Source: a virus
Strand: one strand, 5' to 3'
UHGV virus genome: UHGV-0181052
Length of the DNA stretch: 48,673 nt
Part shown: positions 365 through 41,360 of the stretch, piece after piece
Layout of the letters: the number at the start of each line of letters is the position of its first letter
How positions within the stretch are numbered: position 1 is the first letter of the stretch
Notes under the pieces: generated by a model
Told to the model about the DNA's origin: nothing
Databases searched by the model: none
The model's input: the letters and a program-made list of their open reading frames with translations, nothing else
Program-made: the position numbers and the translations under genes

Positions 365-545
365 TCTTGTGCTCCTTTTTCCACTCTTTGAAACAACGTT
401 TACACACTACGACATTATTGATCACATGCCAGCGCCCGCTGCGGCCGCCAGCGTGGAAGTACGTCCCACAGCCAACCATCTTCCCGCGCTCGCTGCCTTT
501 GATCATCTTCCGACAGCCGATAACCCCCGGCTTTGCCCCGCTCAC
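339..545 (-). CDS. small Cys-containing ORF (68 aa), doubtful
   Basis: GTG start overlaps the stop of the upstream gene. The ORF overlaps the RBS and start of the 1..364 gene by 26 nt. Cys pattern C..C...CxxC. It may simply be the promoter/RBS region of the neighbouring gene. Confidence 0.2.
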   Translation of the reverse strand: MSGAKPGVIGCRKMIKGSERGKMVGCGTYFHAGGRSGRWHVINNVVVCKRCFKEWKKEHKNEEGDISV

Positions 546-937
546 TATTCTGCCCCCACCAGGTAGTTAGCCAGGCTGCCCATGGTGACATACAGGCGGT
601 TGCACATGATCTTCACGAAGTGCCGGCCGTCGAAGTTGCCCGCTGCCGAAGCCTTGCTCGACTTGATGATCACGACGTGCTGAACGCGGTTGTAGGACTT
701 TCTGAACAGCGTGGCGTTAGCGATCTGGTTCACCACGTCCTTCTCGGTGAATCCGGTGTTCACTCCCAGCTGCTCATCTTCGCGGTAGCCTGTTTTGCTG
801 GCCTCTTTGGCGATCATGAACGCGATGGCTGGCTGGTCTGCGACAATTACCGGGATGCGACGGCGGCCAATAGCTTTTTTGATTTCCTCGGCTACTGCAC
901 TGGCGGTCTTCGGTGATACGGTGGTTTGTTCTGACAT
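545..937 (-). CDS. hypothetical early protein (130 aa)
   Basis: ATG at 937. It lies directly downstream of the strong sigma70-like promoter P1 (-35 TTGACA 996-991, -10 TAATAT 973-968). The 5' UTR is almost identical to those of the 4655 and 38045 genes. Confidence 0.65.
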   Translation of the reverse strand: MSEQTTVSPKTASAVAEEIKKAIGRRRIPVIVADQPAIAFMIAKEASKTGYREDEQLGVNTGFTEKDVVNQIANATLFRKSYNRVQHVVIIKSSKASAAGNFDGRHFVKIMCNRLYVTMGSLANYLVGAE

Positions 938-963
938 TTCGTTGCTCCTTCTGTTGGGTGTTC

Positions 964-996
964 GGGCATATTACTTATGCGTTATATGCCTGTCAA
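964..996 (-). promoter_or_regulatory. early promoter P1 with embedded dyad operator
   Basis: On the minus strand: TTGACA (996-991), 17 nt, TAATAT (973-968). The dyad is GGCATATAA / TAATATGCCC. The UTR is GCCCGAACACC. Confidence 0.7.
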
Positions 997-1003
997 CTGT
1001 ATT

Positions 1004-1510
1004 TCACATGTGATATTTGCGCATCGTCTCGATCAGGTCGAATGCCATCCAAAACCGGCGGTCATAGTCAGGCGCGGCCTGCTGCTTGCGGATGTACTTC
1101 TGAGCGGCTGACAGGTTCTTCTCCTCCATCCTGACGCGCGGAGCCTTCGGGAATGCATCGCGGGCTATCACTGGTTCGGAGGTCATCTCCTGGTCTGGCT
1201 CGACCTTGAGGAAGTTGGCCCCGATCTCATGCAGCGCCACCGGGAACTCATAGCCGGTAGTCTCCATGAACCACCACAGGCCCAGGTGCGAGCCGCACTG
1301 ATTGCAAATTGCAGCACCGCGGCCCTTCATCGTGACGTCTTGCTTCGACTCGCCCCAGCGGAACCGGTCGTTCCCTCCGCATATCGGGCAGGCCTGATGC
1401 CTGCCGTTGAATGCGCGCTTATCCCAGTACTGGGAGAGAAGCAGTTCCCAGCGCCCGACCATGAGCCGCTCTATCTGCTCAATGGGGTAGAACTTCATGC
1501 CATCCTCCAC
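1004..1510 (-). CDS. primase-type zinc-ribbon domain protein (P4-alpha / Prim_Zn_Ribbon-like), with no catalytic domain
   Basis: Motif ACPICGGNDRFRW ... AICNQCG is typical of the zinc-binding domain of primase-helicases. The protein is 168 aa. No TOPRIM or AEP catalytic region is present. Confidence 0.65.
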   Translation of the reverse strand: MEDGMKFYPIEQIERLMVGRWELLLSQYWDKRAFNGRHQACPICGGNDRFRWGESKQDVTMKGRGAAICNQCGSHLGLWWFMETTGYEFPVALHEIGANFLKVEPDQEMTSEPVIARDAFPKAPRVRMEEKNLSAAQKYIRKQQAAPDYDRRFWMAFDLIETMRKYHM

Positions 1511-2058
1511 AGATTCAGGTAGCGGGCGTTGAGGTTAGCCATGATCCCCTGGTCATATTTCGCGTCGAGCTTACGCTTGTGCAGCATCGGCCCCACCTTT
1601 TCCTCATGTACCAGCCCGCGCTGGTTGTACACGTAAAGCCCGGCATAATCCGGCAGGATCTCCCGAGCCTTGTCGACGATAGTCCACGGCACCAGGAAGT
1701 AGAAGCGATTGGCTATCAGCTCCCCAGCTTTCAGGCAGTCGTGCTTCATCTTCACCGGGTAAGGGACGCGCTCCCCGTCAATCCGCCAATATTTCTCAGC
1801 CTCCTCCGCCGTCTTCGGGTAGACCGTGTGGGCCTTACGGAAATCGGCTTTCATATCAGCGATGGAGATCTTCACCTCCACCTCCACCGTGTAGCGGCTC
1901 TTGCGGATGCAGAACATATCCGCCTCATACCCGAGGTTGTCCGGGGTGTAGTAGTTCGGGATCATGATCTGGAACGAGTTACCCAGGCTGCGCACAAATG
2001 CCCGCTGTATCGCACCCTCGTGAATTTCTGGTTCTGGTAGCTTGCCGATACTCATCAT
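1495..2058 (-). CDS. PD-(D/E)XK nuclease-like protein (MmcB-like)
   Basis: Start moved to the ATGATG at 2058 (AAGGA RBS, MMSIGK...). The E-A-D ... V-E-V-E-V-K motif is compatible with a PD-(D/E)XK fold. Family assignment is from memory of MmcB-like phage proteins. Confidence 0.55.
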   Translation of the reverse strand: MMSIGKLPEPEIHEGAIQRAFVRSLGNSFQIMIPNYYTPDNLGYEADMFCIRKSRYTVEVEVKISIADMKADFRKAHTVYPKTAEEAEKYWRIDGERVPYPVKMKHDCLKAGELIANRFYFLVPWTIVDKAREILPDYAGLYVYNQRGLVHEEKVGPMLHKRKLDAKYDQGIMANLNARYLNLWRMA

Positions 2059-2131
2059 TTCAAAAGTCCTTGTGTTTTGGTATTCGTTGTGCAGAATATA
2101 CCGCAATGTTTACTGCGTCAACGAGGCGACA

Positions 2132-4180
2132 ATGGAAAAAATTAAAAGCATCAAGCAAATGATTGAGGAGACGGACATAGAGGCTGTTCGCGGCCAGCTG
2201 CTGCGAGGTCTTCGCGGTATGCCATACGACCCCTACCCGTTCCAGTTCGCGGCACACTTTGCGACGTCGCAGGCCATCAACAACTACAAAGAGATCGGCC
2301 CGTTCGTCGTCAAGGCCGCCGTGTCGGCAGGGAAGACCACGCTGATCAGCCTGGTGGCCCGCCGCCTGACCCAGCTCAATAAGCCAGCGCTCGTTCTGTC
2401 GCGACAGGGCGGGATCATCAAACAAAACGCCATGGAGATACGGAACTTCGGGGTAGAGAACAGCGTGTTCAGCGCTGGCCTGCGCATGAAGTCCACCACC
2501 TTCCCGATCATCTGCGGGAGCGAGAAGACGGTGGTCAACGCCCTCGAAAAGCAACTGGCTAACTTCGTGCCGCGCTTCCTGCTGATCGACGAATGCCAGC
2601 ACGTCAACGTAGATGACATCGTTGAAAGCGAGATGACCTGCGAGCTGGCGGATAAGCACCCTGAGAACGAGAAGTTGCAGGCTAGAGCTGAGCGCACGCT
2701 GGCGCAGATGATCGACGCTGGCCGTACCGGGTACACGCTCATTATCCGGGAGATGCAACGCCGCTGCCGTGAGATGCACGGTCGTGAGCTGGTCGTCATT
2801 GGGTACACCGGCACCGACTACCGCGGCACGCAGCCGATCATCAACGAGGACACGAACACCCCGGGCTTCTGGCGGCGGGCAGTGTGCGACATCTCCACTG
2901 AATACCTGGTTGAAGTTGGCGCAGTGGTTCCGACCCACTACGGCGCGATCGATGATGAGCTGACCTACCAGCTTGATTCATTCGTGAGCCGCGGGGAAGA
3001 AGGGGACGATGAATTCAGTGATGCCGACCTGATCGAGATGGAGAAGCAGATCCTGGCCCAGGGAACCATCACGCAAAACATCATGCTCGACGTCGTGAAG
3101 CGTACCGTCAACCGCAACTGCGTTCTCGTCACCTGCGCCGGTAAGAAGCACTGTAAGGAGGCGGCCAGCGCGTTACCGCCCGGGGTGACTTACGGGATCA
3201 TCACCGATGACACGCCGCAGAAGGAGCGCGATCGGATACTGGAAGACGCATTTAACAACCGCTGTAAATTCATCTTCCAGATCGGTTGCCTTACCACCGG
3301 CTACAACGTCCCGCCGTGGGACACAATCGTTATCCTGCGCAAGATCGGCAGCCTCACTCTGCTGGTTCAGCTCATCGGGCGCGGAATGCGCATCCTCAAA
3401 AAGTTCCACGTCGAAGAGCTGGGAATGGTCAAAGAGGATAACCTCGTGCTCGACTACGGTGGAGCACTGGACGACCTGGCTGAGCTGTACTTCTCGCCAT
3501 TCCTTGAGCAGTACCGCTATGAGACAGACACCAGCAGCGGCCAGACGAAGGAATGCCCCTTCGGGCACACGAACGGCAAGCACGCGCGCCGGTGCCGCCA
3601 TGTGTACGACCACGACGGGATCGAGGACGACGGCACGCCATACCGCAAGGACGACCGCTGTCACTACTGGTTCATCTCGCGCACATGCGAGGACTTTAAG
3701 AACGATCGCGGGGTGGTGGTCAGTCGCGGATGCGGAGCGGAGAACGACATCACCGCCCGGCAGTGCGCCCACTGCGGGAACACGCTGATCGACCCCAACA
3801 AAAGCCTTGAGAAAAAGAGCTACACACGGGATGACTTTGTAGACGTGAGATCCTTCAACGTGGAGCCAACGAAGTGCGGGAACGGCGTGGTGTTCCGCTA
3901 CGTGCTGGGGAATGAGGGCGAGCCTGACTTCGTGGCCTATGAGATATTTTGGCCGGACAGCGACAGCGTGCCAGCAAAACAGCAGTGGAAGGCGGCGCTG
4001 GATAAGCACATTGCATCACCGAACACCCGGGGCAAGATGCGGCGCGGGGTGAAAACGAAGATCCTGCCGTCCGCTCACCTGATTGCAGCGCCGAAGCGTG
4101 TGACGCACCGGCGCATAGGCGGGAGCAAGTCTCGTGACGTGATAGCCCGTAAAATTTTCGAAGGAGGGGACGACCTGTGA
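2132..4180 (+). CDS. superfamily-2 DEAD/DEAH-box type helicase with C-terminal Cys-rich (zinc-ribbon-like) region
   Basis: ATG at 2132 (MEKIKS...). Walker A AAVSAGKTTLISL, DExH-like LLIDECQHV. The C-terminus carries CPFGH...RRCRH...CHYW...RGCGAEN...QCAHCGN. Confidence 0.8.
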   Translation: MEKIKSIKQMIEETDIEAVRGQLLRGLRGMPYDPYPFQFAAHFATSQAINNYKEIGPFVVKAAVSAGKTTLISLVARRLTQLNKPALVLSRQGGIIKQNAMEIRNFGVENSVFSAGLRMKSTTFPIICGSEKTVVNALEKQLANFVPRFLLIDECQHVNVDDIVESEMTCELADKHPENEKLQARAERTLAQMIDAGRTGYTLIIREMQRRCREMHGRELVVIGYTGTDYRGTQPIINEDTNTPGFWRRAVCDISTEYLVEVGAVVPTHYGAIDDELTYQLDSFVSRGEEGDDEFSDADLIEMEKQILAQGTITQNIMLDVVKRTVNRNCVLVTCAGKKHCKEAASALPPGVTYGIITDDTPQKERDRILEDAFNNRCKFIFQIGCLTTGYNVPPWDTIVILRKIGSLTLLVQLIGRGMRILKKFHVEELGMVKEDNLVLDYGGALDDLAELYFSPFLEQYRYETDTSSGQTKECPFGHTNGKHARRCRHVYDHDGIEDDGTPYRKDDRCHYWFISRTCEDFKNDRGVVVSRGCGAENDITARQCAHCGNTLIDPNKSLEKKSYTRDDFVDVRSFNVEPTKCGNGVVFRYVLGNEGEPDFVAYEIFWPDSDSVPAKQQWKAALDKHIASPNTRGKMRRGVKTKILPSAHLIAAPKRVTHRRIGGSKSRDVIARKIFEGGDDL

Positions 4181-4596
4181 TTAAAGAATACCTTGATCCA
4201 CCAGCTGAGCCGACGAAGGCGCTTGAGGATGACCACCTGATTAACTTCACCACCTGGTTTAACCATTGGTATCCAGACGTGTACTGGTTCCACGTGCCGA
4301 ACGAGAACGGCGGGAAGGCTGGCAAGCAGTACTTTCTGCGCCAGCAGGCGAAGGGACTCCGCAAGGGCGTTGCCGACGTCGTGATCCTGCACCGGGGACG
4401 CAACGGGGAGCCGTTCGGGGTGATCGAGATGAAGCGGGAGAACAAGAAGCTGTCGACTCCAGTCAGCAAGGAGCAGGTTGAGTGCCTGAACGCCGTGGCT
4501 GCACAGGGCGGCTTTGCTGCGGTGGCGTATGGGTTCCACTGCGCGAAGCTGGCGGTGATCGACTTCCTCGGGCCGTCGACCATCTTGGTCAAATAG
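4177..4596 (+). CDS. VRR-NUC domain nuclease
   Basis: GTG start overlaps the helicase stop (GTGA), with RBS AAGGAGGGG. The DVVILHRG...GVIEMKREN...LS..Q pattern is typical of VRR-NUC PD-(D/E)XK nucleases. Confidence 0.7.
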   Translation: MIKEYLDPPAEPTKALEDDHLINFTTWFNHWYPDVYWFHVPNENGGKAGKQYFLRQQAKGLRKGVADVVILHRGRNGEPFGVIEMKRENKKLSTPVSKEQVECLNAVAAQGGFAAVAYGFHCAKLAVIDFLGPSTILVK

Positions 4597-4598
4597 TC

Positions 4599-4632
4599 TT
4601 GACAGGGCATATTATGCGGAAGTAATATGCCC
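4599..4632 (+). promoter_or_regulatory. early promoter P2 with embedded dyad operator
   Basis: TTGACA 4599-4604, 18 nt, TAATAT 4623-4628. Perfect dyad GGGCATATTA (4605-4614) / TAATATGCCC (4623-4632). Confidence 0.75.
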
Positions 4633-4654
4633 GAACACCACACAGGAGGTCATC

Positions 4655-5029
4655 ATGACACATGCAGAGTTATCCAGAATATTGCACGGCGGCATTCGCA
4701 ACGTAGACCGCAAGACGTTTAAAGAGGCTTATGGCTTTATGCGCGCATTAAAGCGAGCTGTGTGCTATTTGCCTGTTAAAGAAAATCACAACTTAAAGTC
4801 AGCGGTTGAAGGCGCTGCTTGGTCTTTGATTTTCTGCGGCGTTAGTGCGGAAGAGGAAATAAAGTTAGGAGATATTATTTTCCGCATTAGCGGCAGGCCA
4901 TACCCGGCAATTGAGCATAAAAATAAATGGCTGATGAAGGTTAACTATAAAGGCGACAGCCGCAAGTTCATTAAGCATGAAGATTTAGAACGCAAACTTC
5001 GTTTAGATATGAATAAGGGGATCATGTAA
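4655..5029 (+). CDS. hypothetical protein (124 aa), AT-rich moron-like early gene
   Basis: ATG at 4655 with RBS AGGAGG. Promoter P2 lies immediately upstream. By eye the GC content is clearly lower than that of the flanking genes. No family recognised. Confidence 0.6.
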   Translation: MTHAELSRILHGGIRNVDRKTFKEAYGFMRALKRAVCYLPVKENHNLKSAVEGAAWSLIFCGVSAEEEIKLGDIIFRISGRPYPAIEHKNKWLMKVNYKGDSRKFIKHEDLERKLRLDMNKGIM

Positions 5030-6072
5030 TGTCAGATATTAAATCGCTCAAAGATGATGAAGTTCTGTTCTTCACGAATAACGACCTGTCGAACGAAGAC
5101 TACCACGCTGAGACAGACCACATGAACGGTTCCGGCCTGTGGGAGCTGTTCTCCAGCTGCCCGGCCAACTGGAAATTTGCCGAAGACAAGAAGAAACAAA
5201 GTCGCGCATTGGTCTTCGGTACAGCGGCCCACGCCAACCACCTCGAACCGGAATTATTTGCCCGTGAATATTTCCGCATGCCTGAGAAAGAGGACTTTAT
5301 TAAGCGTGACGATAAAGGCGAGATTATTCCGCAGCCGAACTTTATTACCTCGCTTGAGGCCGCGAAGGCATTTCTGAAAGAGCACGGCGTTGCCGGTTAT
5401 TCGAAGATGAAGGAGGCGGAATTAATTGAAACCGTCACCAACACCGCCGCAGCGCTTGGAATAAACGACGTAGTCTTTTGGCACGATATAGTGAAGAAGG
5501 CCAATGAAGAGCGCGGCGATCGCGAGGGCATTCGCGGGCAGGATTATGACATCATTCAGGAGATGCGCGCCGTTCTGTTTAATAACGAAGACTTTAAAGA
5601 GTATTTCGTTGACGGGATGTCAGAAGTTTCGATCTTTTTCAGCTATCAGGGGTTGCGTTGCAAGGTGCGCCTCGACTGGATCAGCAAGTTCGCCGATATG
5701 GTGGACTACAAAACCACGGACTCAGCCAATCCCGACCGGTTCATGCGTAAGTGCTTCGACCTCGGGTACCCGCTGAAAATGGCGTTGCAGCGTGAAGGGT
5801 TCAAGGCGGCGTTCGGCCAGAAGCCACGCAGAACGATGCTGCTGGCGCAGGAGAAGAGCAGCCCGTTTGTTGTGGCACCGTTCGCCCTGTCAAACAAGAC
5901 GCTGATGATCGGCTATGCGCAGTTGCGTGAAGCCATCGCCACTTATAAGTGGTGCCGTGACAATAATTCATGGCCGACATACGGCGGCGGCAACGTGATT
6001 GACCTCGATCCGCCGTACTACCTGGAAAACGCCTTCCGCCACCTGTGGGAAGATGTGAAAACCAAAAAATAA
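5029..6072 (+). CDS. RecE-like PD-(D/E)XK exonuclease (recombination exonuclease)
   Basis: TAATG coupling to the upstream gene, RBS AAGGGG. Motifs D-x-E-x-K (RLDWISKFADMVDYK) and an N-terminal DYHAE..DH resemble the exodeoxyribonuclease VIII family. Confidence 0.6.
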   Translation: MSDIKSLKDDEVLFFTNNDLSNEDYHAETDHMNGSGLWELFSSCPANWKFAEDKKKQSRALVFGTAAHANHLEPELFAREYFRMPEKEDFIKRDDKGEIIPQPNFITSLEAAKAFLKEHGVAGYSKMKEAELIETVTNTAAALGINDVVFWHDIVKKANEERGDREGIRGQDYDIIQEMRAVLFNNEDFKEYFVDGMSEVSIFFSYQGLRCKVRLDWISKFADMVDYKTTDSANPDRFMRKCFDLGYPLKMALQREGFKAAFGQKPRRTMLLAQEKSSPFVVAPFALSNKTLMIGYAQLREAIATYKWCRDNNSWPTYGGGNVIDLDPPYYLENAFRHLWEDVKTKK

Positions 6073-6080
6073 TTGATTCC

Positions 6081-6106
6081 GGGCTAATATACTGACATAT
6101 TAGCCC
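6081..6106 (+). promoter_or_regulatory. perfect 10-bp inverted repeat upstream of the erf RBS
   Basis: GGGCTAATAT-actgac-ATATTAGCCC. No T-run follows. It is related to the half-sites of the promoter dyads. Confidence 0.5.
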
Positions 6107-6127
6107 CTCAACATAAGGAGTGACAAA

Positions 6128-6823
6128 ATGATGAAATTTTCCCAACCATGCAGCACCATCGTTAAACAGTTTGCCCATGCGCAGGATATGTGCGTTTCGC
6201 CGAAGAAGTCTAAGCAGAACCAGCACCTGAAAAACCACTACTCTACCCTTGCCGACGTTGCGGCGGCCATCGGCCCGGCAATGGAAGACGCCGGATTGAT
6301 CATGATCCAGTCACCGACGCACGAAGCCGGTCAGGCTCCGAACGTGCTGCTGATGGAGACGCGCATTATCCACGTTGCCACTGGCGAATGGGTGTCCGAC
6401 ATCTGCCAGATCCCGCTGGCGAAGAACGACGCCCAGGGATTCGGCTCAACGCTGACCTACGCCCGCCGTTATGCCCGTGTTGCGATCTTCGGCCTCACCA
6501 TGGATGACGACGACGGCAACAAGTCAGTGCGTAGCGCAGCAGACTGCCGACGCTCCATTGAAGCCGCGAAGGATAAGGATGAGGTCGACGCCATCTACCG
6601 CGCTGCATGCGAGCTGTTCCGCAACGACAAAGCATCCCTGCGCATCGTTGAAGACGCCCGCGCCAGCAAGATCGTGGAGCTTAAAAACGCGGAAGCCCGT
6701 CCGTTCAATCCCGGCAAGCCAGCCAACGCTAAACGCGGGAAGGCGACAGTCCAAGTTGCACCTGATGAGGTTCAGCCGCAAGATGTAGCGCCACAACAAC
6801 CAGACGTTGAAGAAGATTTTTAA
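6128..6823 (+). CDS. erf: Erf-family single-strand annealing protein
   Basis: RBS TAAGGAG. The segment GSTLTYARRYARVAIFGL resembles the conserved Erf core. It is followed by SSB and preceded by an exonuclease, which is the layout of a recombination module. Confidence 0.65.
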   Translation: MMKFSQPCSTIVKQFAHAQDMCVSPKKSKQNQHLKNHYSTLADVAAAIGPAMEDAGLIMIQSPTHEAGQAPNVLLMETRIIHVATGEWVSDICQIPLAKNDAQGFGSTLTYARRYARVAIFGLTMDDDDGNKSVRSAADCRRSIEAAKDKDEVDAIYRAACELFRNDKASLRIVEDARASKIVELKNAEARPFNPGKPANAKRGKATVQVAPDEVQPQDVAPQQPDVEEDF

Positions 6824-6835
6824 GGAGCGTTATAG

Positions 6836-7318
6836 ATGGCAAGCCGTGGAATTAACAAGGTGATCCTCGTGGGTCGCATCGGTCAGGATCCAGAGATTCG
6901 CTACATGCCGTCAGGCGGTGCAGTGGCTAACCTCACCATTGCGACGTCGGAATCATGGCGCGATAAGCAGACCGGCGAAGTGAAGGAGCAGACTGAGTGG
7001 CATCGCGTCGTTGTCTTCGGCAAGCTGGCTGAGATCGTCGGCGAGTACGTGAAGAAGGGTTCTCAGATCTACGTCGAAGGGAAGCTGCAAACGCGCAAGT
7101 GGACTGACAGCAACGGCGTGGAGAAGTGGACGACAGAAGTGGTGTTGAACGGGCCGAACGCTATCATGCAAATGTTAGGCGGCAAGGCCGAAGGCGGCCA
7201 GCATGGACAGGCGCAGGGACAGCCGCGAACACAGTCCGGGCCAGCTCGCCAGCAGGCTAAACCACAGCAGCAGTCCAGCGAGCCGCCGATGGACTTTGAC
7301 GACGACATTCCGTTTTGA
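6836..7318 (+). CDS. ssb: single-stranded DNA-binding protein
   Basis: [34 protein letters not shown]...[14 protein letters not shown], with a Gly/Gln-rich tail ending DDDIPF. This is the classic SSB OB-fold plus acidic C-terminal tip. Confidence 0.92.
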
Positions 7319-7326
7319 GGTAGAAG

Positions 7327-7530
7327 ATGACCATCACACTGATTTTGAAAGAGCACCGTGAGCGCGCTGGGTTTTCCCAGCGTAGTCTGGCGAAAGCAGC
7401 AGGTATTGCGCAGTGTCGCGTATGCCGTTATGACAATGGCCGTGAGTTCCCGACCATTGAAACCATGATCCGCCTCGCAAAGCCTTTAGGCATTAAGTGG
7501 CATGAACTCGTAAAAGTAGAAGGGGAATAA
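7327..7530 (+). CDS. HTH (XRE/Cro-like) transcriptional regulator
   Basis: 67 aa. RAGFSQRSLAKAAGIAQCRVCRYDNG is a helix-turn-helix signature. Confidence 0.7.
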   Translation: MTITLILKEHRERAGFSQRSLAKAAGIAQCRVCRYDNGREFPTIETMIRLAKPLGIKWHELVKVEGE

Positions 7531-7532
7531 CC

Positions 7533-7805
7533 ATGACTATCAACATCAAACAGGCATTACTGGCTTTACTGATCGGACTCGTGCTGTCCTTCGTCGCCAC
7601 CTCCGCAATGTCAGCTGAACGCGCCGACAACGGCAACAAGGGCGTTAGCCACATTGAGAACCAGACGAAGATCTATGAGAACACCTCTGCGGGCAAAGAG
7701 CGCGCAGAGTGGGCCGCAGGGCGAGTGATCGCCGTCGGCGACAGCGTCAGCTGCTACAATCCGGCATTGAACAGGGTTAACGGCGTGAAGGTGCGCTGCT
7801 CATAA
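7533..7805 (+). CDS. secreted protein with cleavable signal peptide (90 aa)
   Basis: N-terminal hydrophobic h-region ALLALLIGLVLSFVATSAMSA followed by an ER cleavage context. It is the last gene before the convergent terminator. Confidence 0.55.
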   Translation: MTINIKQALLALLIGLVLSFVATSAMSAERADNGNKGVSHIENQTKIYENTSAGKERAEWAAGRVIAVGDSVSCYNPALNRVNGVKVRCS

Positions 7806-7809
7806 CAAG

Positions 7810-7832
7810 AAGGGGCCATCGGCCCCTTTTTT
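7810..7832. terminator. bidirectional rho-independent terminator between the early (+) unit and the late (-) unit
   Basis: GGGGCC-ATC-GGCCCC stem-loop followed by T6. The T-run overlaps the stop codon of the tail fiber gene. Confidence 0.8.
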
Positions 7833-9079: not shown

Positions 9080-12000
9080 TTAGCTGAATGAGTTGCTGTT
9101 CGTGCGGAACGCGGTGGCCGTGATGTTCTGGATCGAGCAGTTGTAATCGAACGATGCGTCGTTGCCGCGAGCCTTGATGAAGAAGGTCACATTGTTGTTA
9201 TCAGCGGCAAGGTCGGCAGCGAAGCGGAACTCCTGCGTGAAGTCGCCAGCCTGGAAGCCGGAGGCGTTCGCGAAGAAGCGGCGCGTGACTTCCTGCCCGC
9301 CGATGTTAAACGTGATGTCGACAGAATACGACTGCTGAACGTTACCGGCACCAGTGAGCTGATAAACAAGCGTGCAGGATAACACCACCGTCATACCATA
9401 GCCGCGGTTCTGATAAGCACCGTTGCGCTGTACTGTCTGGTTACGACGGAACGACATATCATCGTAGCGACGCGCCACGGCAATATCGCCAATGAACGAC
9501 TCAGCTTGCAGGGTGCCTTTGAACACGCCACTGTTAGCCTCGACACGACCGCGAACGATGACGTTGTTGAACTGCGAGCTGCCATCTTTAGCGATGCGCC
9601 AGCCCTGCGAGCCATCAACAAAGTTGTTCGACCTGATTTCGTTGCCGATCTTCGCGTTGGTGATCGAACCGTCGCGGATGAGCGCTTCCTGCATATACGC
9701 CACGCCGTTCTGCACTACGAACGGGAACGTCTTGTTGCTGCCGCCAGCGTACACTGCGAAGGTGTCAGCCTGAACCAGGAACTGAGAAGAGCCACTCGCG
9801 TCGATGCCCAGCTGAATCCCTGCGATGCGCGGGTTACCGCCGCCGGTGTCAGTCTGAACTTTGACGCCCCACTGCGCCGACAGCTTGCCGTTGATATCCG
9901 CAACCGCCGTTGAGGTCTGCTGTACGGTAGCGCTCATGCCATCCATTGACGCGTTGATCGTGTCGATCTGCTGCGCCGTTGCAGTCTCAAGATCCACCAC
10001 AGCCTTGTTCGTCTGCGTGATGGCCGCCTGATTGTCGCCAATCTGTGCGCGCAACTGCTGGAAGCCGTTTGCCATCGCCAGACCGTTAGCCGCAGTCGTC
10101 TCGTTCAGTCCGTCGATCGCTGACTCTGCATTGCCGACGCGAGAAGTCAGGCTGGTCAGAGCGTTGCTGTTCGCGGTGATCTTGCCTTCCGCATTGGTGA
10201 CGCGGGTAGTCAGGGAATTCAGTGCCGAAGCGCTGGCCTTCGTGTCCACCACGCCAGACAGGTCGGACAGGTCGCTATTCAGCTTGGTAATCGCCTGTCC
10301 CTGAGAGGTCAGCGTATTGCCCTGCTGGGTGACCGTCGATTGCAGGCTGGTGATCGCGTTGGCGTTCGCCGTGATCTTCCCGTTCGCGGTGCTGAGGTCT
10401 GCGGTCAGCTGAGTGATCGCCGTTCCCTGCGACGTGATTTTGCCTTCTGCCGTCGTGACGCGGGTGGTCAGGTTGCTGATGGCTGTCGCGTTCGCTGCGT
10501 TGTTGATCTCGTCGGTGACGTCGATAAAGAACACGTCATCGAAATAGATCTCGCCTGTAGCCAGGTTCCAGTTAATGGAGTAAGCAACATCCATATCTGT
10601 CGCCGGGACAAAGTCCTTAGTGAGCAGCGTCCAGTTGGTGCCGATATTCGCTTCCGAAAAGTTCAGCTCAGACAGCGGGCCAGCGCCGGTGGTTGCATTA
10701 CCCAGGCGGAACTTGTTGTTCCCATAGGTGTTGGGGCCGATCGCCATATCAGCTGTGCGCTTCACATATCCGCCGAACCGGTAGGTGCGCCCAGCCTTCG
10801 CCCCCAGCACATTCTGGCCGATCGCCGTGTTACCGCCTGACTTGCCACGCAGGATCATTGCACCAGACTTCGGAGCCTGAGCTGCGTAGACGTCAGCTCG
10901 TGAACTCCAGCCGCTCCAGCTGTCCGTTCCACGCTCGAAGCCGGTGTTCGTCAGCATGTTATCCGGGTTCGCCGCCAGCGCCACCGCGTCGTTCGTCAGA
11001 CTGGATTTCAGCTGCGTGAGCGCGTTCGACTGTGCGGTGATGTCCTGGCCCTGCTGGGTGACGGTAGTGGTCAGACTGCTGATTGCCGCGCTGTTGGCCT
11101 TGATCGTCAGCTCTTCGGTGATGTCGTACACCTTGAACGAGTCGATCCACACCTCAGCGTTTGACGGGTGGCAATACAGGCCGAACGCTGAACCGTCGAA
11201 GCCGCTTGCCGGGGTGAGGTCAGTTTCCCACGTCAGAGTTTGCCAGTCGGTTGTCAGCGTGTTGTTCTTGTCGGAATAAGAGCCTTCAACGCTGCCGTTG
11301 TAGTTCCAGCGACGCATGAGGAGGTTCATTCCGCCGCTTACGCCTTTCGCACGCACAACATAGCGATAACGGCGCTGACCGTTCTGCGGAACCGGCTTTT
11401 TGTTGTTCGCAAACAGCCCGGGCGATGTGGCGTTGACTTTAACCATACGGACGCCGTTCTTCCCGTCGCCATACGCGCCGAACGTCACCGTGCTGAAACT
11501 ATCCCGTTGCAAGCTGTATGCGGTGTCGCCTTGCAGGAAGTCATAGTTCTGCACGAGGTTTTCACCGGTGCGGCGCTGTGCTTCCAGCCCGTTGTTCAGG
11601 TTGGTGATGGCCGTACCCTGGCTCTCGATCTTGTCTTCTGCGGTGGTCACACGCGTTTGCAGTGCGGTGACTGCGCTGGCGTCAGCCTTCTGGCTCAGTG
11701 TGCCGTTGATGGTGCTCACGTCGCCGTTCAGCTTGGTGATCGCGTCTGCCTGCGATGTGATCTTGCCTTCGGCGCTGCTCACACGGCTGGTCAGGCTGTT
11801 GATCGCGCTGGCGTTAGCGTCTGCGGTGATCTGTGCTGCGTGCGCGTCGGTAACGTCTGTGATAACGAGATCGTCGATGAAGACACGATAGCCCGGGCCA
11901 CCGGATGTGCCACGACAGGAGATCCACAGACGACCGCGAGTCTTCTGCGCGCCACCGGCACCGATCTTGCCTGAGAACTTGACCCACTTACCGCGACCGC

Positions 12001-15000
12001 CACCAGCGGCCAGTGTGGCTTCGTTGATGTTCAGCGCGGTAGGCCATGCTGCCTGTCCTGCGGAGGTGCGAACCATTAAGCCCACCAGACAGCTCCAGCC
12101 TTCCGGGGGCGTCTCGGTTTCCGGCATCATTGCCCAGCACTCAAAGCGGTACACGGCGCTTTCTCGAATAGCCGTTTCATAGCCGATAGTCTTATCAGAG
12201 TTGCCGGTTTCACCGTTTGCACGGCGGCACATGAGCGACTTCTGACCACTGAATGCGAATTCCGTGGTCACCAGCCCGTTAGCTCCGCCGATCGCCTGCT
12301 GGTTATCATACGACTCAAATGAGCCATCTACCCACGGGTTGCTGTTGCTGTACTGAACCGTGAGTAAACGGTTAGTCAGCTGGGTGATCGAGCTGCCCTG
12401 CGACGTGATGTCGTTACCCTGCTGGGTCACTTTCGTGTTCAGCGAGGTGATCGCGTCAGCGTTCGCCTGGATCTTGGTGTCGTTGGTGATGTCGACAACG
12501 TAGACGTCGTCGAAATACATCGCGCCAGCGCTCAGCCATGTAGTCAGCTGGAACAGCGCGTTAGTGGTCTTCGTGGCCGTCCAGTCCATGAAGACGTGTT
12601 GCCATTCAGACGTAAACGGGCCGTAGTTCGTACCGATAAGAAGATTGCCTGATGCGTCAGCGATGCGGAATTTCGTGTTACCCGGATCGTTGATGACAGT
12701 CCCGGTGTCCTGCTTGGCAAACACGCCGAAGCGGTACCGGCGGCCCTGCGTGATTTCCACGGCCTGACTGATTCCAGCACTTCCGCCTGCCGCCATCTTG
12801 GCAATCTTGGTTCCAGAATGCGGCTGCGTTGCCGTGATGATGGTAGCAAGGCTGCTCCATCCGGTGAAGTTAACCGGGCCACGCTCAAACGATGAGTTAG
12901 CCAGCAGGTTGCCGGGGATCTTGCCCTGCGCGTCGATTGATGCGTCAGTGGCTGACAGGCTGTTGCTCAGCTGGGTGATCGACTGACCCTGTGAATCAAT
13001 CTTTCCTTCGGCAGTCGATACGCGGGTAGTGAGCGCATTCAGCGCCGAAGCGTCTGCCTTGCTGTTCACGATGCCGGTGAGCGTGCTCAGATCGCCGGTC
13101 AGCTTGGTGATGGCCTGACCCTGAGACGTGATCGACCCTTCCGCAGAAGTGACACGGGTGGTCAGCTGGGTGATCGCCGTGGCGTTGGCGTCAGCCTTGC
13201 TTTCTGCATTCGCCGCTGCGGTAATGTCGCGAACGCTCCAGTCAGTTGCATACCAGACTGTACCGAAGTCCGGGCCGCCCTGAGCGATTTGCAGGAATGG
13301 ACGGAAGTAACCCTTCGCACCCTGCGCCGCGTTTACTGTCCAGCGCCACGTAGTGCGCGTCCACTTCGCGCCGGTAGCCGCTGAGATCTGGCCGCCGTTA
13401 GCCTGTGGTGACCCGATGCTGCCAGAAACCACCGTCGACGTACCGATGTAGTGCTGGAATGGCGCGGAGCCGGTACCACATGCAGCCAGTACTGATAACT
13501 CAAACACCTGCCCTTCGCGGCACGGGATGTTATTCATTGCCGGAACATGATCGCGGTACTGGCATTTGATTGCCCACGGGTAAGGGCAGTCGGCCGGAAC
13601 GCCTTCGGACGCGGTTGAAACTACGGTAAGCCCCATCTGACCGTATGCCGGGTCTACCGTCGGGTTCGGGATGAGGTTGGCCGCCTGAGTCAGCGCGCCC
13701 TTGATCGATGAGTTGATCGAGGTGATAGCCTCAGCTTGAGAATCAATCTTCCCTTCCGCTGCGGTGACGCGGGTCGTCAGGTTCGTGATCGCCGTGGAGT
13801 TAGCAGCGATCTTCCCGTTCGCTGTCGACAGGTCACTGGTGAGCTGGGTAATGGCGTTGCCATGCGCAGTGATCTTCCCTTCCGCGGTGGTGACCCGGGT
13901 AGTCAGCGACTGCAACGCGCTCGCGTCAGCCTTGTTGTTCAGCGCGGTGTTGATGTCCTGCACTGAGTTGTTCAGCGTCAGGATTGCGGCGCTGTTCGAG
14001 TCAACCTTCCCGGCGGTCTGCTCAACCTGAGATGAGAGGATCTGCGAGGCGGATGCGGCCGCCAGCTGACCGGCACCACTGAACAGCTGATCAACGTTAT
14101 CGGACAGCTTGAGTCCGAAGTTGATATAGAACTGGCCGGTGATCTGTGCAACCACAAATTCCAGCGTGTTCCAGCCCTTTTTGAGCACCAGGTTGTAGGT
14201 AGCGGTGCTTGCGCCGAAGGTGGCCGCCTCTGCGCCGTTGATGTACAACCGGCCGGTATCGTCCACGATGCGGGAGCCGGGAGCGATGGCAATAGTCTTG
14301 TCAGCCGCGACATACACCAGAGACTTCGCATACGCGATTTTGTAGTCGCCGTATGTCAGGAAGTCCAGCTTTGCAGCGTCGGCCATCTCGGACACGGCCA
14401 GAGGAGGAACGCCAGACAGGTCGGACAGTTTCGGGATGTACCCGCTACCGTTAACCTTGATGTCGAAGATCTTGGTCAGCCAGTACTTCGCTTTACCGTT
14501 CTGCGCGGTGTTCTGCAAATCGGTGATGGCCTGACCCTGCGAAGAGATGGTGTTCCCCTGCTGGGTGACAGTGGTCGCCAGCTGCTGCAATGCGCTCGCT
14601 TCGGCCTTGGTCGCCATCTGACCCTGCAAGGTGCTCACGTCGCCTTTGAGCTGGGTGATCGCCTGGCTGTTAGTGCTGATGGTGCCTTCCGCCGCAGTGA
14701 CGCGTGTAGTCAGTGCCTGCAACGCGCTTGCGCTGGCATTGTCAGCCGGTGCTTCGCTCCACTCGGTAGGCATGGTGCCGTACTCGAATTTGGGCGAGCT
14801 GATGTAAACCTCTTTGTCCTTAGACCCTTTCAGCAGTCGGCCAAAGATTACGCGCTGGGTGCCTGTCTGGCCGCTCTTACGGGTGTACTTAACCCAGTAA
14901 CGCGCCCAGTCTTCCGTAAGGTCGATTGTCATCGAACCATCGCCACCATTAGACCAGCTGCCAGTTTTCCCTTGGCTGCTTAAAGCCGTAAGCGTGGCGT

Positions 15001-36910: not shown

Positions 36911-36987
36911 TTTGATGTCCTGTGCAGTAGGGGCAGGATTGCCCGGCCCCTATATTCCTGCGCAGTCATAGATATGTCAAGCAGTAT

Positions 36988-37582: not shown

Positions 37583-37645
37583 TTCCCCCATGTGCGTAAG
37601 GGTGTACGTGTTTCTGTAATTATATGGGTTTTATATATAATAGGG

Positions 37646-37810
37646 ATACCACCTAACACCCGAAATTAATCCTTTCATATCAGTAGCTTGCGAACGTCAG
37701 GAAGTGAGGTGTTTCGACATCTCCACCTGAATTAATCCTTTCGCATCAATCACTTAGTATTTTCACCGCTCGAAGCACGGCAAAATGCCTCCACCCGAAA
37801 TATTGCTGAC
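37646..37810 (+). repeat. iteron-like direct repeats in the divergent control region (candidate origin of replication)
   Basis: Copy A GAAATTAATCCTTTCATATCA at 37662-37682. Copy B GAATTAATCCTTTCGCATCA at 37730-37749. Each is preceded by CCACCT. A third partial copy CCACCCGAAATATTGC lies at 37791-37806. Confidence 0.55.
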
Positions 37811-37989
37811 ACTGTACACGCACTTTTTGTGCTCAATTTGTGTACAGCGATTCTGTGGATAACTTTTCCCCAGTCGATTGATTTCACTGGAAAATATAAT
37901 ATTGATACGGGGGAGTCCCTATCTGTTGTGTTTACATACTGTATAAGCGCTCAAAGTCCTCCCTGTTTTCAGGTGGAAAGTAATTGCTA

Positions 37990-38021
37990 TTGACACGGTA
38001 TTACTCGCCGTTAATAATACC
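37990..38021 (+). promoter_or_regulatory. early promoter P_rep with dyad
   Basis: TTGACA 37990-37995, 16-17 nt, TAATAAT. The dyad is GGTATTA / TAATACC. The UTR ACCCGAACC is related to those of P1 and P2. Confidence 0.65.
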
Positions 38022-38044: not shown

Positions 38045-39706
38045 ATGAACGAAGAGAACAAAAGGCCGATGACGCCAGACGACTGGAAGGCGTTGCTGGG
38101 CGATCAGGAGAAACAGCACGAAGCGGCGGACATTCTCAACCAGCCGATGACCCGCGAGGAAGAGGACGAAGCCTACTCGCAGGAAATGGCCGATATGCAG
38201 GCGTACTTCGACCAGGTAGCACGTGCTGAGGTGGAGGCACTCGAACAGGAGGAAGATGTAGCGCCACCTGCTCCACCTGAACCACCTAAGCAGAAGAAGA
38301 AAGACGCCGGACAGCGCCACCTTGAGCTGCAACGCATCGTTCGCGAGGAGAATGAAAAGCAGAATCTCGGCATGGACTTATCCGCCCAGCGCGTTGAGGT
38401 GGCAAAGCGTCTCGCTGAGGAAGTCGAGCAGGGTCTGGTTGAAGATCCTGCACTGAAAGACTACGACCCGGGCGAGTACGTGCTGAACACCTCGCCGGAC
38501 TTCTACGACCCGGTGATCGAAGGCCTGCTGAACCGCCGAACCATCAACGAGATCAACGGTGATGCAGGCGCGGGCAAGACGACGCTGCTGGTGCAAATGG
38601 CCGTCAGCCTCGCCATGGGTCGACCGCTGTTCAACTGCTTCCGCGTGTGTAACCCGGGTGTCAGCGTGTTCTTCACCGAAGACCCGGACAGCGTCGAGTT
38701 GCAGGTGGCCGCCTGGTCGCTGCGCACTGGCGTGAATCTTCGCGACTGGATCAAGGTGTTCAAGCGGCCGGCCGATCTGATGGAGCCGGGTAAGCTGCGC
38801 ATCCAGAAGAGTCGCGTGTTGCAGTTCGCCAACGGCAGGCCGGTGAATCTGGTCATCTTCGACAGCAAAATGTTCCACCTGGCCGCAGCCAACAACAACG
38901 GCGTGAGCATGGACGAGAACAGCAACACCGACCAGCAGTTGATCACCACCGCCGGGCACCGGTTCGCTGAGTCCCTCAACTGCGCCGGGATCTTCATCCC
39001 GCACGTCAGCAAGGGAAGCCTGATGTCCGGCCAGTACGACCTTGAGTCTCGTGGTGGATCGGCAGCGAAGGGCGCGGTGTATAAAACGTTCAGCCTGGTG
39101 CGCGAGAAGACGCAGACCGGCAAGGGGTTGAACGCCCGCCAGAAGGAGACAGGCTACACTGTCCTGAACGTCGGCAAGAGCCGCCAGGGCGGGTTGAAGG
39201 GGCGCTTTAAGCTCAAAGGCTTTCAGGTGCCGGTATTCGCGAAGGACGTTGAGGCGAAGAAGAAAAGCACGTATGAGAAGAAGCTCGCACCGGGTCAGGA
39301 GGTCGATCGGCCAGACTTCATCTACATCGACGACGCCACGAAGGTATGGCTGTTCGAAGACCGCGTTTACGATATGGACGCCGGTTCAGAGGATGAGCAT
39401 TTTGAACCGGAAGAGAAGCGTCAGGCGCACGTGTACACGCCATTGCAGGAGGCTGTTTATTCGCTGCTGAGGGCTGAGCCGCATGGCACCGCGCCGTACA
39501 AGGAGATCCTGCACCGTATCAGCTCCACGGTGTTCAAGGCCGACGGCTCGCCGTATTCCCGGGAGTCAGTGCGCGACGCAATTTACAAAATGGCTGAGCT
39601 GGGGCACCTGAGCAAAGAGGCTAACCCACACGAAGCCCGTAACCCGTATTACACGATCAAAGATGCCGTTCCCCCGCTGATGGGTAGCTGCCGTGATAAC
39701 CACTGA
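38045..39706 (+). CDS. replication protein: RecA-like (AAA_25 / DnaB-type) ATPase with C-terminal winged-helix domain
   Basis: Walker A NGDAGAGKTTLLVQMA, Walker B VNLVIFDS. The C-terminal wHTH-like region is YSLLRAEPHGTAPYKEILHRI. The gene is driven by the P_rep promoter and preceded by iteron-like repeats. Confidence 0.75.
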   Translation: MNEENKRPMTPDDWKALLGDQEKQHEAADILNQPMTREEEDEAYSQEMADMQAYFDQVARAEVEALEQEEDVAPPAPPEPPKQKKKDAGQRHLELQRIVREENEKQNLGMDLSAQRVEVAKRLAEEVEQGLVEDPALKDYDPGEYVLNTSPDFYDPVIEGLLNRRTINEINGDAGAGKTTLLVQMAVSLAMGRPLFNCFRVCNPGVSVFFTEDPDSVELQVAAWSLRTGVNLRDWIKVFKRPADLMEPGKLRIQKSRVLQFANGRPVNLVIFDSKMFHLAAANNNGVSMDENSNTDQQLITTAGHRFAESLNCAGIFIPHVSKGSLMSGQYDLESRGGSAAKGAVYKTFSLVREKTQTGKGLNARQKETGYTVLNVGKSRQGGLKGRFKLKGFQVPVFAKDVEAKKKSTYEKKLAPGQEVDRPDFIYIDDATKVWLFEDRVYDMDAGSEDEHFEPEEKRQAHVYTPLQEAVYSLLRAEPHGTAPYKEILHRISSTVFKADGSPYSRESVRDAIYKMAELGHLSKEANPHEARNPYYTIKDAVPPLMGSCRDNH

Positions 39707-39710
39707 GGAA

Positions 39711-39929
39711 ATGACCATGACTATGATTTGCCACGTTACAAGCATCCCGGCCCTTCTCGAAAAAGCGGGCAGTATGCGCAAGCTGACCACCAAGACCGGC
39801 CTGAACACCATGACCATCCTGAAATTCCGGGACGATCATAACTGCGAGCGTCACGCGATCATTAACGGCCGGTTGATGACCTGGCGCGAGACATCCTCCG
39901 CAGATTTCAAAGAATTCATTAAAGAGTAG
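39711..39929 (+). CDS. hypothetical protein
   Basis: Start uncertain (ATG at 39711 or 39717, GAGGA upstream). Confidence 0.45.
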   Translation: MTMTMICHVTSIPALLEKAGSMRKLTTKTGLNTMTILKFRDDHNCERHAIINGRLMTWRETSSADFKEFIKE

Positions 39930-39940
39930 TGTAAGCAGTA

Positions 39941-39969
39941 TTGACACGATGCGGCCCCTATAATATATT
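39941..39969 (+). promoter_or_regulatory. promoter-like element
   Basis: TTGACA 39941-39946, 17 nt, TATATT. Confidence 0.4.
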
Positions 39970-40014
39970 TATCGAACAGGCAGTAACTAACCGATAAATT
40001 CAAGGGGTCGCAAA

Positions 40015-40674: not shown

Positions 40675-40683
40675 TAAATATTG

Positions 40684-40724
40684 TTGACTCTATGTGCTTG
40701 GGTGTATATAGTGTTTATACACCC
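40684..40724 (+). promoter_or_regulatory. promoter-like element with palindrome
   Basis: TTGACT 40684-40689, 17 nt, TATAGT. The palindrome is GGGTGTATA-TAGTGTT-TATACACCC. Confidence 0.5.
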
Positions 40725-40744
40725 AACGAAATGAGGAAAACGAA

Positions 40745-40981
40745 ATGACAACTGCACAGACCGTAGCCGCAAAATTCAGCAAAATGAACATGAACGCAGT
40801 AGCCGCGTTGGAAGTAATCCTCAACGCTACCCTGCCAGAAGTTTCAAAAGTATCTATTCACCACTGTGAGATCACGTTCAAGGATGGCTCGCTGGTTATC
40901 CTCCACGATACCCGTAACGCGCGCTCCATCGGCCTGACCAACTATGACTACGCGATCCGCACCCAAGACGCTGCGTGCTAA
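40745..40981 (+). CDS. hypothetical protein (78 aa)
   Basis: Promoter at 40684-40712. RBS GAGGAAAA. Confidence 0.55.
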   Translation: MTTAQTVAAKFSKMNMNAVAALEVILNATLPEVSKVSIHHCEITFKDGSLVILHDTRNARSIGLTNYDYAIRTQDAAC

Positions 40982-41010
40982 CCCAACCGGCCCCTTCGGG
41001 GGCCAACCGG
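40982..41010 (+). other. GC hairpin flanked by the direct repeat CCAACCGG
   Basis: CCAACCGG-GGCCCC-TTCG-GGGGCC-AACCGG, with no T-run. The second repeat copy overlaps the SD of the 41019 gene. Confidence 0.45.
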
Positions 41011-41018
41011 AGGAAACT

Positions 41019-41348: not shown

Positions 41349-41360
41349 CGGGAGGGCATT

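Follow-up and report, generated by a model that had tools for sequence, protein, structure and literature searches.

Four promoters in the genome of a Klebsiella phage share an 18-bp dyad whose right half coincides with the -10 element, and this shared dyad probably serves to bind a repressor, an ordinary type of control in a phage group that has not been studied. We put the full reading, in which a dimeric protein binds the dyad, covers the -10 element and shuts the promoters off, with a 67-aa helix-turn-helix (HTH) protein as the best candidate for the binder, at a probability of about 50%. The window, 48,673 nucleotides long, is the complete genome of an unclassified, virulent siphophage related to T1.

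The first promoter, P1 (931..996, minus strand), has the -35 element TTGACA (996-991), a 17-bp spacer, and the -10 element TAATAT (973-968), with dyad arms GGCATATAA (990-982) and TAATATGCC(C) (973-964) around the core TATAA-N8-TAATA (969-986). Downstream follow GCCCGAACACC, AGGAG, and the ATG at 937, with the leader GCCCGAACACCCAACAGAAGGAG, and the driven gene encodes 130 aa (545..937). P2 (4599..4657, plus strand; TTGACA 4599-4604, 18-bp spacer, TAATAT 4623-4628) carries a dyad with perfect 10-bp arms (4605-4614 and 4623-4632, core 4610-4627) and the leader GCCCGAACACCACACAGGAGG before the ATG at 4655, and it heads an operon of genes for a 124-aa protein, ExoVIII, Erf, Ssb, and the HTH protein. 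The first of these genes (4655..5029) is AT-rich, as had been proposed, with a GC content of 42.7% vs. 57.8% genome-wide. P3 (37990..38047, plus strand; TTGACA 37990-37995, 17-bp spacer, AATAAT 38013-38018), the first promoter of the rightward block, precedes a primase/helicase gene (ATG 38045) and has the arms GGTATTA and TAATACC, with the core TATTA-N8-TAATA at 37999-38016. P4 (42215..42289, plus strand; TTGACA 42215-42220, 18-bp spacer, TAATAT 42239-42244, ATG 42287) has its dyad core at 42226-42243; an inner stem distinct from the dyad (ACGGG/TCCGT, 42220-42236) lies in its spacer, and its 5'UTR contains a hairpin (42249-42269). All four are predicted to be near-consensus promoters for the host sigma70: a consensus scan gave 10 of 12 matches for P1, P2, and P4 and 11 of 12 for P3, each has a -35 near TTGACA, a 16-18 bp spacer, and a -10 of the form TAnnnT, and each is followed within 20-40 nt by an AGGAG-type ribosome binding site and an ATG. 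The -35 and -10 elements are unchanged across 9-13 orthologous variants, and the combination TTGACA-N18-TAATA occurs three times in the genome vs. 0.18 expected.

Searching the genome for TATTA-N8-TAATA with at most one mismatch returned four matches, exactly P1-P4, vs. 0.08 expected, and none of 100 shuffles gave four. The -10 hexamer itself makes up the right half of the site consensus, (A)TATTA(C)-N6-(G)TAATA(T), and an inverted copy of this hexamer, always 8 bp further upstream (roughly -25 to -21), makes up the left half. The symmetry does not stop at the pentamers, with A at -1 matched by T at +18 and C at +5 by G at +12, and in P2 and P4 the left arm is a perfect TAATAT on the reverse strand. 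Among 9-13 orthologous variants of P2, P3, and P4 the ATTA of the left arm is invariant, amid flanking spacer positions that take two to four states; GTATTA is invariant in 13 variants of P3, and the P4 dyad pairs 13-16 with 25-28 show no variation among the orthologous variants. Judged from these alignments, the ATTA of the left arm is constrained. Being the -10 element, the right half-site is so in any case, and the left half is possibly kept merely as its complement.

The same dyad is enriched 10- to 200-fold in four related phages: HSE3 (6 vs. 0.05 expected), K70PH128C1 (4 vs. 0.55), KLB22 (11 vs. 0.35), and the E. coli phage KW1E_UTAR (10 vs. 0.05). In these relatives, too, the dyad always has the N8 spacing; the spacing profile has a sharp peak at N = 8 and none elsewhere. 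Counts stay at background level in T1 (2 vs. 1.8 expected) and in Setonix, where no enrichment was found. Most copies in KLB22 and KW1E lack complementarity beyond the pentamers and would form very weak hairpins at best, so that they look like a sequence motif. In the S8a clade, the half-site reads TATTC in P1, P2, and P5, and the recognition helix of the HTH protein is without a clear matching change.

A part of the resemblance among the promoters comes from descent, as P1 and P2, and likewise P3 and P4, look duplicated. P1 and P2 align in inverted orientation over about 62 nt (score 37), their near-identity being that of inverted duplicates, and they flank a replication cassette whose orientation is reversed in a sister clade, that of S8a, where the two flanking promoters again resemble each other; the inverted pair would account for this difference in cassette orientation. 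P3 and P4 have TTGACACGG..TATTA..CCGT in common. It could be argued from this that the dyad is functionless: a single ancestral promoter would have been multiplied by duplication and recombination into the present four, which would simply have inherited its symmetry. We consider this very improbable, as the ATTA stays unchanged beside variable neighbours and the dyad is also retained at promoters that are not orthologous, in lineages with only about 45% protein identity. The grouping of the four sites as one family, made in the earlier note, holds, given a non-random dyad of fixed geometry kept well beyond close relatives. Repeated dyad-symmetric sites of fixed geometry that overlap promoters are also the arrangement of Cro/CI-type operators, and the invariant ATTA within a varying spacer, together with the KLB22 and KW1E copies that lack extended pairing, favours an operator for a dimeric protein.

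The candidate binder is encoded at 7327..7530 (plus strand), in the second-to-last gene of the operon driven by P2 and P6 (see below). This 67-aa protein has a genuine Xre/Cro-C1-type domain, as the "Cro-like" label given to it earlier implied, with Pfam scores above the cut-off for HTH_31 (33.6 bits, cut-off 27) and HTH_3 (32.7 bits, cut-off 23), and its PHROG category is transcriptional regulators. Profile matches in the PDB include C.Csp231I (3e-8) and C.AhdI (8e-7), as well as P22 C2 and 434, all of them remote. The HTH gene is present in each of the five dyad-rich lineages, always in synteny behind ssb, and T1 lacks both the gene and the dyad enrichment. The claim that this is the only candidate was correct in that no other recognisable DNA-binding protein of the phage fits by distribution, but it overlooked a second, weak candidate, a NinH-like protein (39711..39929), which was ruled out by its distribution. 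Being the only recognisable DNA-binding protein with a fitting distribution, the 67-aa protein is the best candidate for the dyad binder. In the mechanism that we propose, a dimer of a sequence-specific DNA-binding protein, putatively this protein of the phage's own, would sit on the dyad, occlude the -10 element, and switch off P1-P4; since it is expressed from the P2-driven operon, its own production would be repressed as well. What we infer from the conserved sites and the gene's distribution is that a protein binds and represses, which protein this is, and that the timing is early. The regulon of early promoters under one dimeric protein suggested in the earlier note is supported in part, by one dyad family, a constrained left ATTA, and a genuine HTH protein, and the palindrome at 6081-6106 does not belong to it.

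Setonix encodes an orthologue of the HTH protein (54-56% identity), yet the dyad is not enriched there. Such a genome would be easier to explain if the dyad were read by a host component, either an enterobacterial transcription factor or the RNA polymerase with sigma70 itself, recognising the inverted TAATAT on the opposite strand as a competing or divergent promoter. The perfect reverse-strand TAATAT in the left arms of P2 and P4 and the presence of the dyad in Klebsiella and E. coli phages alike would agree with a host reader, which we nevertheless regard as distinctly improbable: the position of the reverse -35 reads TGTTCG (two of six matches), and T1 is without the dyad despite infecting the same host genus as KW1E. 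To our knowledge, the dyad is also unlike the sites of LexA, Fur, ArgR, NrdR, NagC, and CRP. Bidirectional promoters with overlapping -10 elements, reportedly described by Warman and co-workers in 2021, are said to have about 18 bp between divergent starts. A bidirectional promoter based on -10 symmetry was rejected here, given the 2/6 match of the reverse -35 and -10-like boxes that lie 8 bp apart, which would place the starts about 33 bp from each other.

Further promoters, some with palindromes of their own, bring in the main competitor of a protein operator. The sequences reported earlier for P1-P4 and for the palindrome at 6081-6106 were all found in place, and three more promoters of the same build had been missed: P5 (39941..40017, plus strand, TTGACA-17-TATATT), P7 (40684..40747, plus strand, TTGACT-17-TATAGT), and P8 (at 2121, minus strand). 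P5 is without the dyad in this genome, the P5 of the HSE3 clade has TATTA-N8-TAATA, and a hairpin in the P5 5'UTR (TTTATCG..CGATAAA) is conserved. P7 contains an 11-bp palindrome (TTGGGTGTATA/TATACACCCAA, 40698-40726) whose centre lies shortly after the -10 element. The weaker, promoter-like P6 (6073..6130, plus strand; TTGATT 6073-6078, 17 bp, CATATT 6096-6101) lies upstream of erf (ATG 6128) and spans the perfect palindrome GGGCTAATAT/ATATTAGCCC (6081-6106), which had been proposed as a relative of the family. Its half-sites are everted (TAATAT-N6-ATATTA) and it shows stem-like covariation, with GGGC/GCCC changed to GGGG/CCCC in a compensatory manner in the MUC-5 clade, so that it is not the operator of P1-P4. 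At the same place, K70 has CCCGCGT..ACGCGGG and S8a has AGCGCGC..GCGCGCT, arms that are unrelated.

Compensatory outer GC arms and unrelated palindromes elsewhere mean that the dyads may act partly or wholly as nucleic-acid structures, selected for self-complementarity and not for the sequence of a half-site. A hairpin or cruciform role is therefore a real rival to the protein operator, and we rate it as possible but rather unlikely. In one form, a stem-loop in the read-through polycistronic RNA would act as an intercistronic stabiliser or a leaky terminator of the kind found in T1 transcriptons, and would be placed inside the promoter for want of intergenic space (only about 55 nt); in the other, a cruciform extruded by supercoiling would disrupt the promoter. 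P1, P2, and P6 have 9-11-bp stems that are stable (-10.5, -16.1, and -13.8 kcal/mol, respectively), with z-scores of about -5 to -6 (P1 -4.9, P2 -6.4); P3 (-1.4) and P4 (-1.65) are not significant alone. The strongest stems belong to internal promoters with a same-strand gene before them. Outer GC clamps vary in a compensatory way at P1, P2, and P6, and compensatory changes are seen at P6, at P1 of the HSE3 clade (where the change equals that of P6), in the inner stem of P4 (GC to CG; GC/GU/AU), and in its 5'UTR hairpin. There are also five different GC-rich spacer stems among the KLB22 promoters, and in the early region of T1, annotated terminator hairpins are flanked by a TTGnTA repeat on one side and a T-rich, -10-like tract on the other. 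Compensatory outer GC clamps are not predicted by a protein site, and unrelated palindromes occur in P6, P7, the inner stem of P4, and several KLB22 promoters. A purely structural role is, however, at odds with an N8 spacing that is strict over deep divergence and with the KLB22 and KW1E dyads that lack extended pairing. A U-tract is absent after the stems of P1 and P2 (GAACACC) and P6 (CTCAAC), sense and antisense folding show no asymmetry (18 vs. 16, p = 0.9), and pair breaks are uncompensated in some variants (L010 and L024 at P2, L014 at P4). Every compensatory change represents only one or two phylogenetic events, and quasipalindrome template-switch mutation could yield such changes without selection. 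Quite unlikely, in our view, is the more far-reaching idea that the promoter palindromes form a dual-use structural code and that the inverted P1 and P2 are the substrate for flipping the 3.6-kb replication cassette between clades. If true, DNA or RNA hairpins would have two tasks, terminating or stabilising transcripts that read through and gating, for instance through cruciform extrusion driven by supercoiling, the sigma70 promoter that they overlap, and TATTA-N8-TAATA would merely be the commonest solution because the -10 element supplies one arm.

The protein operator that we prefer has its closest parallels in the Cro/CI operators of lambdoid phages (lambda OR/OL, 434, P22), where a small Xre-type HTH protein acts on several dyads over strong sigma70 promoters and where, as would be the case here, the regulator's own operon is a target. 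The 434 operator has a 4-N6-4 layout, which is also that of the inner TTAC-N6-GTAA. In contrast to lambdoid phages, this phage is virulent and neither an integrase nor a CI-type switch was seen, its sites are single and scattered over the genome instead of tripartite, one half-site is the -10 hexamer itself, and the HTH protein resembles Cro and C2 only remotely. Operators between or over the -35 and -10 elements of the regulated promoter are also known from P22 Arc at Pant and from the C-boxes of restriction-modification systems, whose C proteins rank near the top of the PDB matches of the HTH protein; methyltransferases are encoded by this phage as well. Arc, however, is a ribbon-helix-helix protein, and C-boxes have the core GACT..AGTC and adjoin the C gene, whereas here the HTH gene lies behind ssb, with no dyad directly in front of it. 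In a synthetic promoter that Horwitz and Loeb are said to have described in 1988 as cruciform-regulated, and in the hairpin promoters of N4, an inverted repeat extrudable under negative supercoiling likewise lies between the -35 and -10 elements or inside the promoter; the arms here are short and extrusion is hypothetical, and an N4-type virion RNA polymerase was not noticed in this genome, its 3355-aa ORF being a tail protein in the annotation of relatives. As in this genome, hairpins and promoter-like elements fill nearly every intergenic gap in the related T1 and TLS, T1-type transcriptons being intergenic modules of terminator and promoter and TLS having direct repeats (PMC11447400). These phages differ in having the direct repeat ATAGCACnnnTTGnTAAAA and terminators with GNRA loops, and in lacking both the TATTA-N8-TAATA dyad and the small HTH protein.

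T1-related virulent siphophages time their gene expression without an RNA polymerase of their own. For the Klebsiella group, which is collected for therapy, the literature holds no promoter analysis and no transcript or binding data. What the analysis yields is a well-defined motif of 18 bp, a few putative target promoters (those of the primase/helicase, the recombination genes, the methylase block, and small early genes), and one candidate regulator. In about 45 related genomes the dyad motif can help annotators to recognise real promoters, and motif, targets, and candidate together make the putative early shut-off directly testable.

The window spans the whole genome, in rotated form, of a virulent Klebsiella siphophage that is unclassified. 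Megablast retrieved no more than 36 relatives, the nearest being vB_KPJD2 and HBM00 (~96.6% identity), and the gene map was taken from HBM00. It comprises a rightward block with the primase/helicase and small genes (38045-44699), a second rightward block with the genes for a helicase, a VRR-NUC nuclease, exoVIII, Erf, SSB, and a helix-turn-helix (HTH) protein (2134-7805), a leftward block that starts at 2059 and continues past the window ends (MmcB-like, primase, 130-aa, methylase, and lysis genes), and a leftward structural block (37485-7831). Remoter kin by protein identity are the clade of VLCpiS8a, ATCEA85, and Diencephalon (S8a clade), K70PH128C1 (K70), and KLB22/KW1E_UTAR, followed by T1-like phages. 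Conservation was read from the stretches upstream of orthologous genes in 27 loci, about 20 of which are whole related genomes and the remainder partial IMG/VR and metagenome loci; these two sources contributed three close loci each, and the independent events are too few for a strong covariation test. We found no literature on promoters, transcription start sites, or regulators for HSE3, vB_Kp3, PMBT64, and other relatives, nor on transcription start sites in Drexlerviridae.

The promoter family described in the earlier note is real and better supported than that note could have known. All sequences it quoted are present in place, and its sigma70-like promoters P1 (964-996, minus strand), P2 (4599-4632), and P4 (42215-42246) each agree with 10 of the 12 consensus positions, and P3 (37990-38021) agrees with 11. 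The string TTGACA-N18-TAATA occurs three times against 0.18 expected, and further promoters of the same build, not listed there, lie at 39941 (P5), 40684 (P7), and 2121 on the minus strand (P8). The leader motif CCCGAAC is weakly enriched genome-wide (14 vs. 7.4). In the core dyad, TATTA-N8-TAATA, the right half is the -10 element and the left half its inverted copy 8 bp upstream. When one mismatch is allowed, the genome contains four copies, one at each of P1-P4 and none elsewhere (0.08 expected; 0 of 100 shuffles reached four). The -35 and -10 elements are invariant among orthologous upstream regions, as is the spacer TATTA (ATTA in P4, GTATTA in P3) over 9-13 distinct variants, with two to four states at neighbouring positions; the ATTA/TAAT pairs of the P4 dyad show no variation.

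The dyads are also kept in related phages, and the motif is lineage-wide with a rigid geometry. When TATTA-Nx-TAATA was counted for x = 2-14, the window, KLB22, and KW1E_UTAR (an E. coli BL21 phage) each gave one sharp peak, at x = 8; overlapping ATTATTA repeats add a peak at x = 5 in HSE3, and N8 was only a weak maximum in K70. Compared with Markov-shuffle means, N8 dyads are enriched in the window (4 vs. 0.05 expected), HSE3 (6 vs. 0.05), K70PH128C1 (4 vs. 0.55), KLB22 (11 vs. 0.35), and KW1E_UTAR (10 vs. 0.05), but are at background in T1 (2 vs. 1.8) and Setonix (2 vs. 1.65); S8a, whose clade carries a TATTC variant, has 2 vs. 0.1. The sites, 28 of which give the consensus (A)TATTA(C)-N6-(G)TAATA(T), are found at promoters of non-orthologous genes; they keep a constant distance to the -10 but not to the -35, for which the implied spacers range from 14 to 19 bp. 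Most dyads in KLB22 and KW1E_UTAR have no complementarity beyond the pentamers and would thus be useless as hairpins. Together, the fixed geometry, the non-orthologous sites, and the missing extended pairing fit the needs of a dimeric DNA-binding protein, not those of a stem-loop. In KLB22 (L013), the gap between four of the dyads and the -35 of the promoter that follows is exactly 8 nt (5083-5140, 6258-6310, 7405-7450, and 42580-42630), and that promoter carries its own GC-rich spacer stem; the same tandem layout occurs in KW1E_UTAR (L027) and was not seen in the window.

That the promoter dyads act instead as structural hairpins or cruciforms is less likely but the main rival reading, and several observations point that way. 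Relative to shuffles, the stems of P1 and P2 are unusually stable (z -4.9 and -6.4), but those of P3 and P4 are not significant alone (z -1.4 and -1.65). The outer GC clamps behave as paired bases, with GGGC..GCCC at P6 (6073) in the window and HBM00 replaced by GGGG..CCCC in the MUC-5 clade, and the same switch at P1 in the HSE3 clade; at the P6 position, unrelated arms bracket the -10 in K70 (CCCGCGT..ACGCGGG) and S8a (AGCGCGC..GCGCGCT). Within the P4 spacer is a second, inner stem that covaries (GC-to-CG and GC/GU/AU), and the conserved 5'UTR hairpin of this promoter (42249-42269, TTCCCGGCA..TGCCGGGAA) has three pairs with compensatory changes; a 5'UTR hairpin is likewise conserved at P5 (39972-40003, TTTATCG..CGATAAA). 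Five different GC-rich spacer stems occur in KLB22 promoters, and in T1 the space separating a TTGnTA repeat from a -10-like tract holds terminator hairpins. The compensatory changes, however, amount to only one or two events each, and some variants lack compensation (L010 and L024 at P2, L014 at P4). The clamp changes, the unrelated arms, and the stems of P4, KLB22, and T1 indicate that this phage family has a second and general tendency to embed palindromes in its promoters. The palindrome at 6081-6106, which the earlier note had joined to the P1-P4 dyads, is present within a weaker promoter (TTGATT-17-CATATT), but its half-sites are everted (TAATAT-N6-ATATTA), and it is grouped with these general palindromes, not with the P1-P4 operators. 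Neither a hairpin-only reading nor a single operator for all palindromes holds, as the former fails on the KLB22 and KW1E_UTAR dyads lacking extended pairing and the latter on P6, P7, the P4 inner stem, and the KLB22 GC stems. An argument for RNA hairpins from coding-strand G.T wobbles was dropped, as 34 promoter cores folded on both strands gave no asymmetry (18 vs. 16, p = 0.9); the structures may act in RNA or in DNA.

Other structured elements were observed in these genomes. A GC hairpin follows, at about +2, the promoter of the structural (late) block (36915-36980, minus strand; TTGACA-17-GAATAT). In the HSE3 clade (L002, ~12000-12055) it forms a complete intrinsic terminator (GGCCGG..CCGGCC TTTTT), and a different gene in KLB22 is preceded in the same way; such layouts hint at control by attenuation or antitermination. 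Near-identical AAGGGGCC..GGCCCCTT stems at 7810-7828 and 44708-44727, where convergent gene blocks meet, look like bidirectional terminators. Direct repeats (37635-37908) lie in the 560 bp of non-coding DNA that separate terS from the primase/helicase gene, namely AATTAATCCTTTC..ATCA twice, 66 bp apart and preceded by CACC(C/T)GAA, and ATATAATAnnGATAC twice; an origin or a packaging site may be located here. In T1 (L025), annotated early-region terminators with GNRA loops (38957-39024, 39986-40052, and 41956-42028) have the TLS-type repeat ATAGCACnnnTTGnTAAAAC on their upstream side and a T-rich, -10-like tract on their downstream side, a layout that agrees with the described 'transcripton' (PMC11447400); the repeat described for TLS differs from the dyad of the window (PMC11447400).

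Part of the resemblance between promoters has another origin. P1 and P2 align over ~62 nt in inverted orientation (score 37), and their ~60-nt copies (931-996, minus strand, and 4599-4664, plus strand) bound a 3.6-kb cassette (997-4598) encoding the primase, MmcB-like protein, helicase, and VRR-NUC nuclease. In the S8a clade (L007, 1860-6366), this cassette has the opposite orientation with respect to the 130-aa and 124-aa genes on either side, which suggests recombination between the promoter copies. Both flanking promoters are mutually alike there (ATATTCAGGgtTCGTAATATC) and unlike those of the window, so the pair evolves in concert by recombination, and part of the P1/P2 family resemblance is therefore history, not regulation. 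Extending this to the dyad as a whole, as a feature inherited without function, is the least probable of the readings considered. The 124-aa gene behind P2 (4655-5029) is AT-rich, as the earlier note had remarked (42.7% GC vs. 57.8% for the genome), has no match in Pfam or PHROG, and shows rapid divergence, with identities of 57% in HSE3 and ~26% in K70; it may be an early gene that was acquired recently or evolves fast.

As to what reads the dyad, a host factor or RNA polymerase itself appears improbable: to our knowledge, none of the LexA, Fur, ArgR, NrdR, NagC, and CRP sites matches it. A reverse-strand promoter was rejected, as no usable -35 was found. The 67-aa HTH protein (7327..7530) proposed in the earlier note is a Cro/C1-type protein (HTH_31 and HTH_3 over Pfam cut-offs) that matches PHROG regulator families and has C.Csp231I, C.AhdI, P22 C2, and the 434 repressor as remote solved relatives. 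Of the 34 non-structural proteins compared, no other recognisable DNA-binding protein is found in every dyad-rich lineage, and the HTH gene follows ssb in the window, HSE3, S8a, K70, and KLB22/KW1E_UTAR; no counterpart was found in T1. A NinH-like 72-aa protein (39711..39929) was discarded as a binder, with a weak Pfam match (19.7 bits vs. a cut-off of 29.8) and no copy in dyad-bearing K70 and KLB22. Since Setonix encodes an HTH orthologue (54-56% identity) without dyad enrichment, the link between protein and site is not clean. The most probable reading, to which we give a probability of about one half, is that P1-P4 form a Cro-like repressor regulon, with the -10 and its inverted copy as operator and binding predicted; this would be a known kind of control, here in an unstudied phage group. 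As the HTH protein is encoded downstream of P2, repression by it would be autoregulatory.
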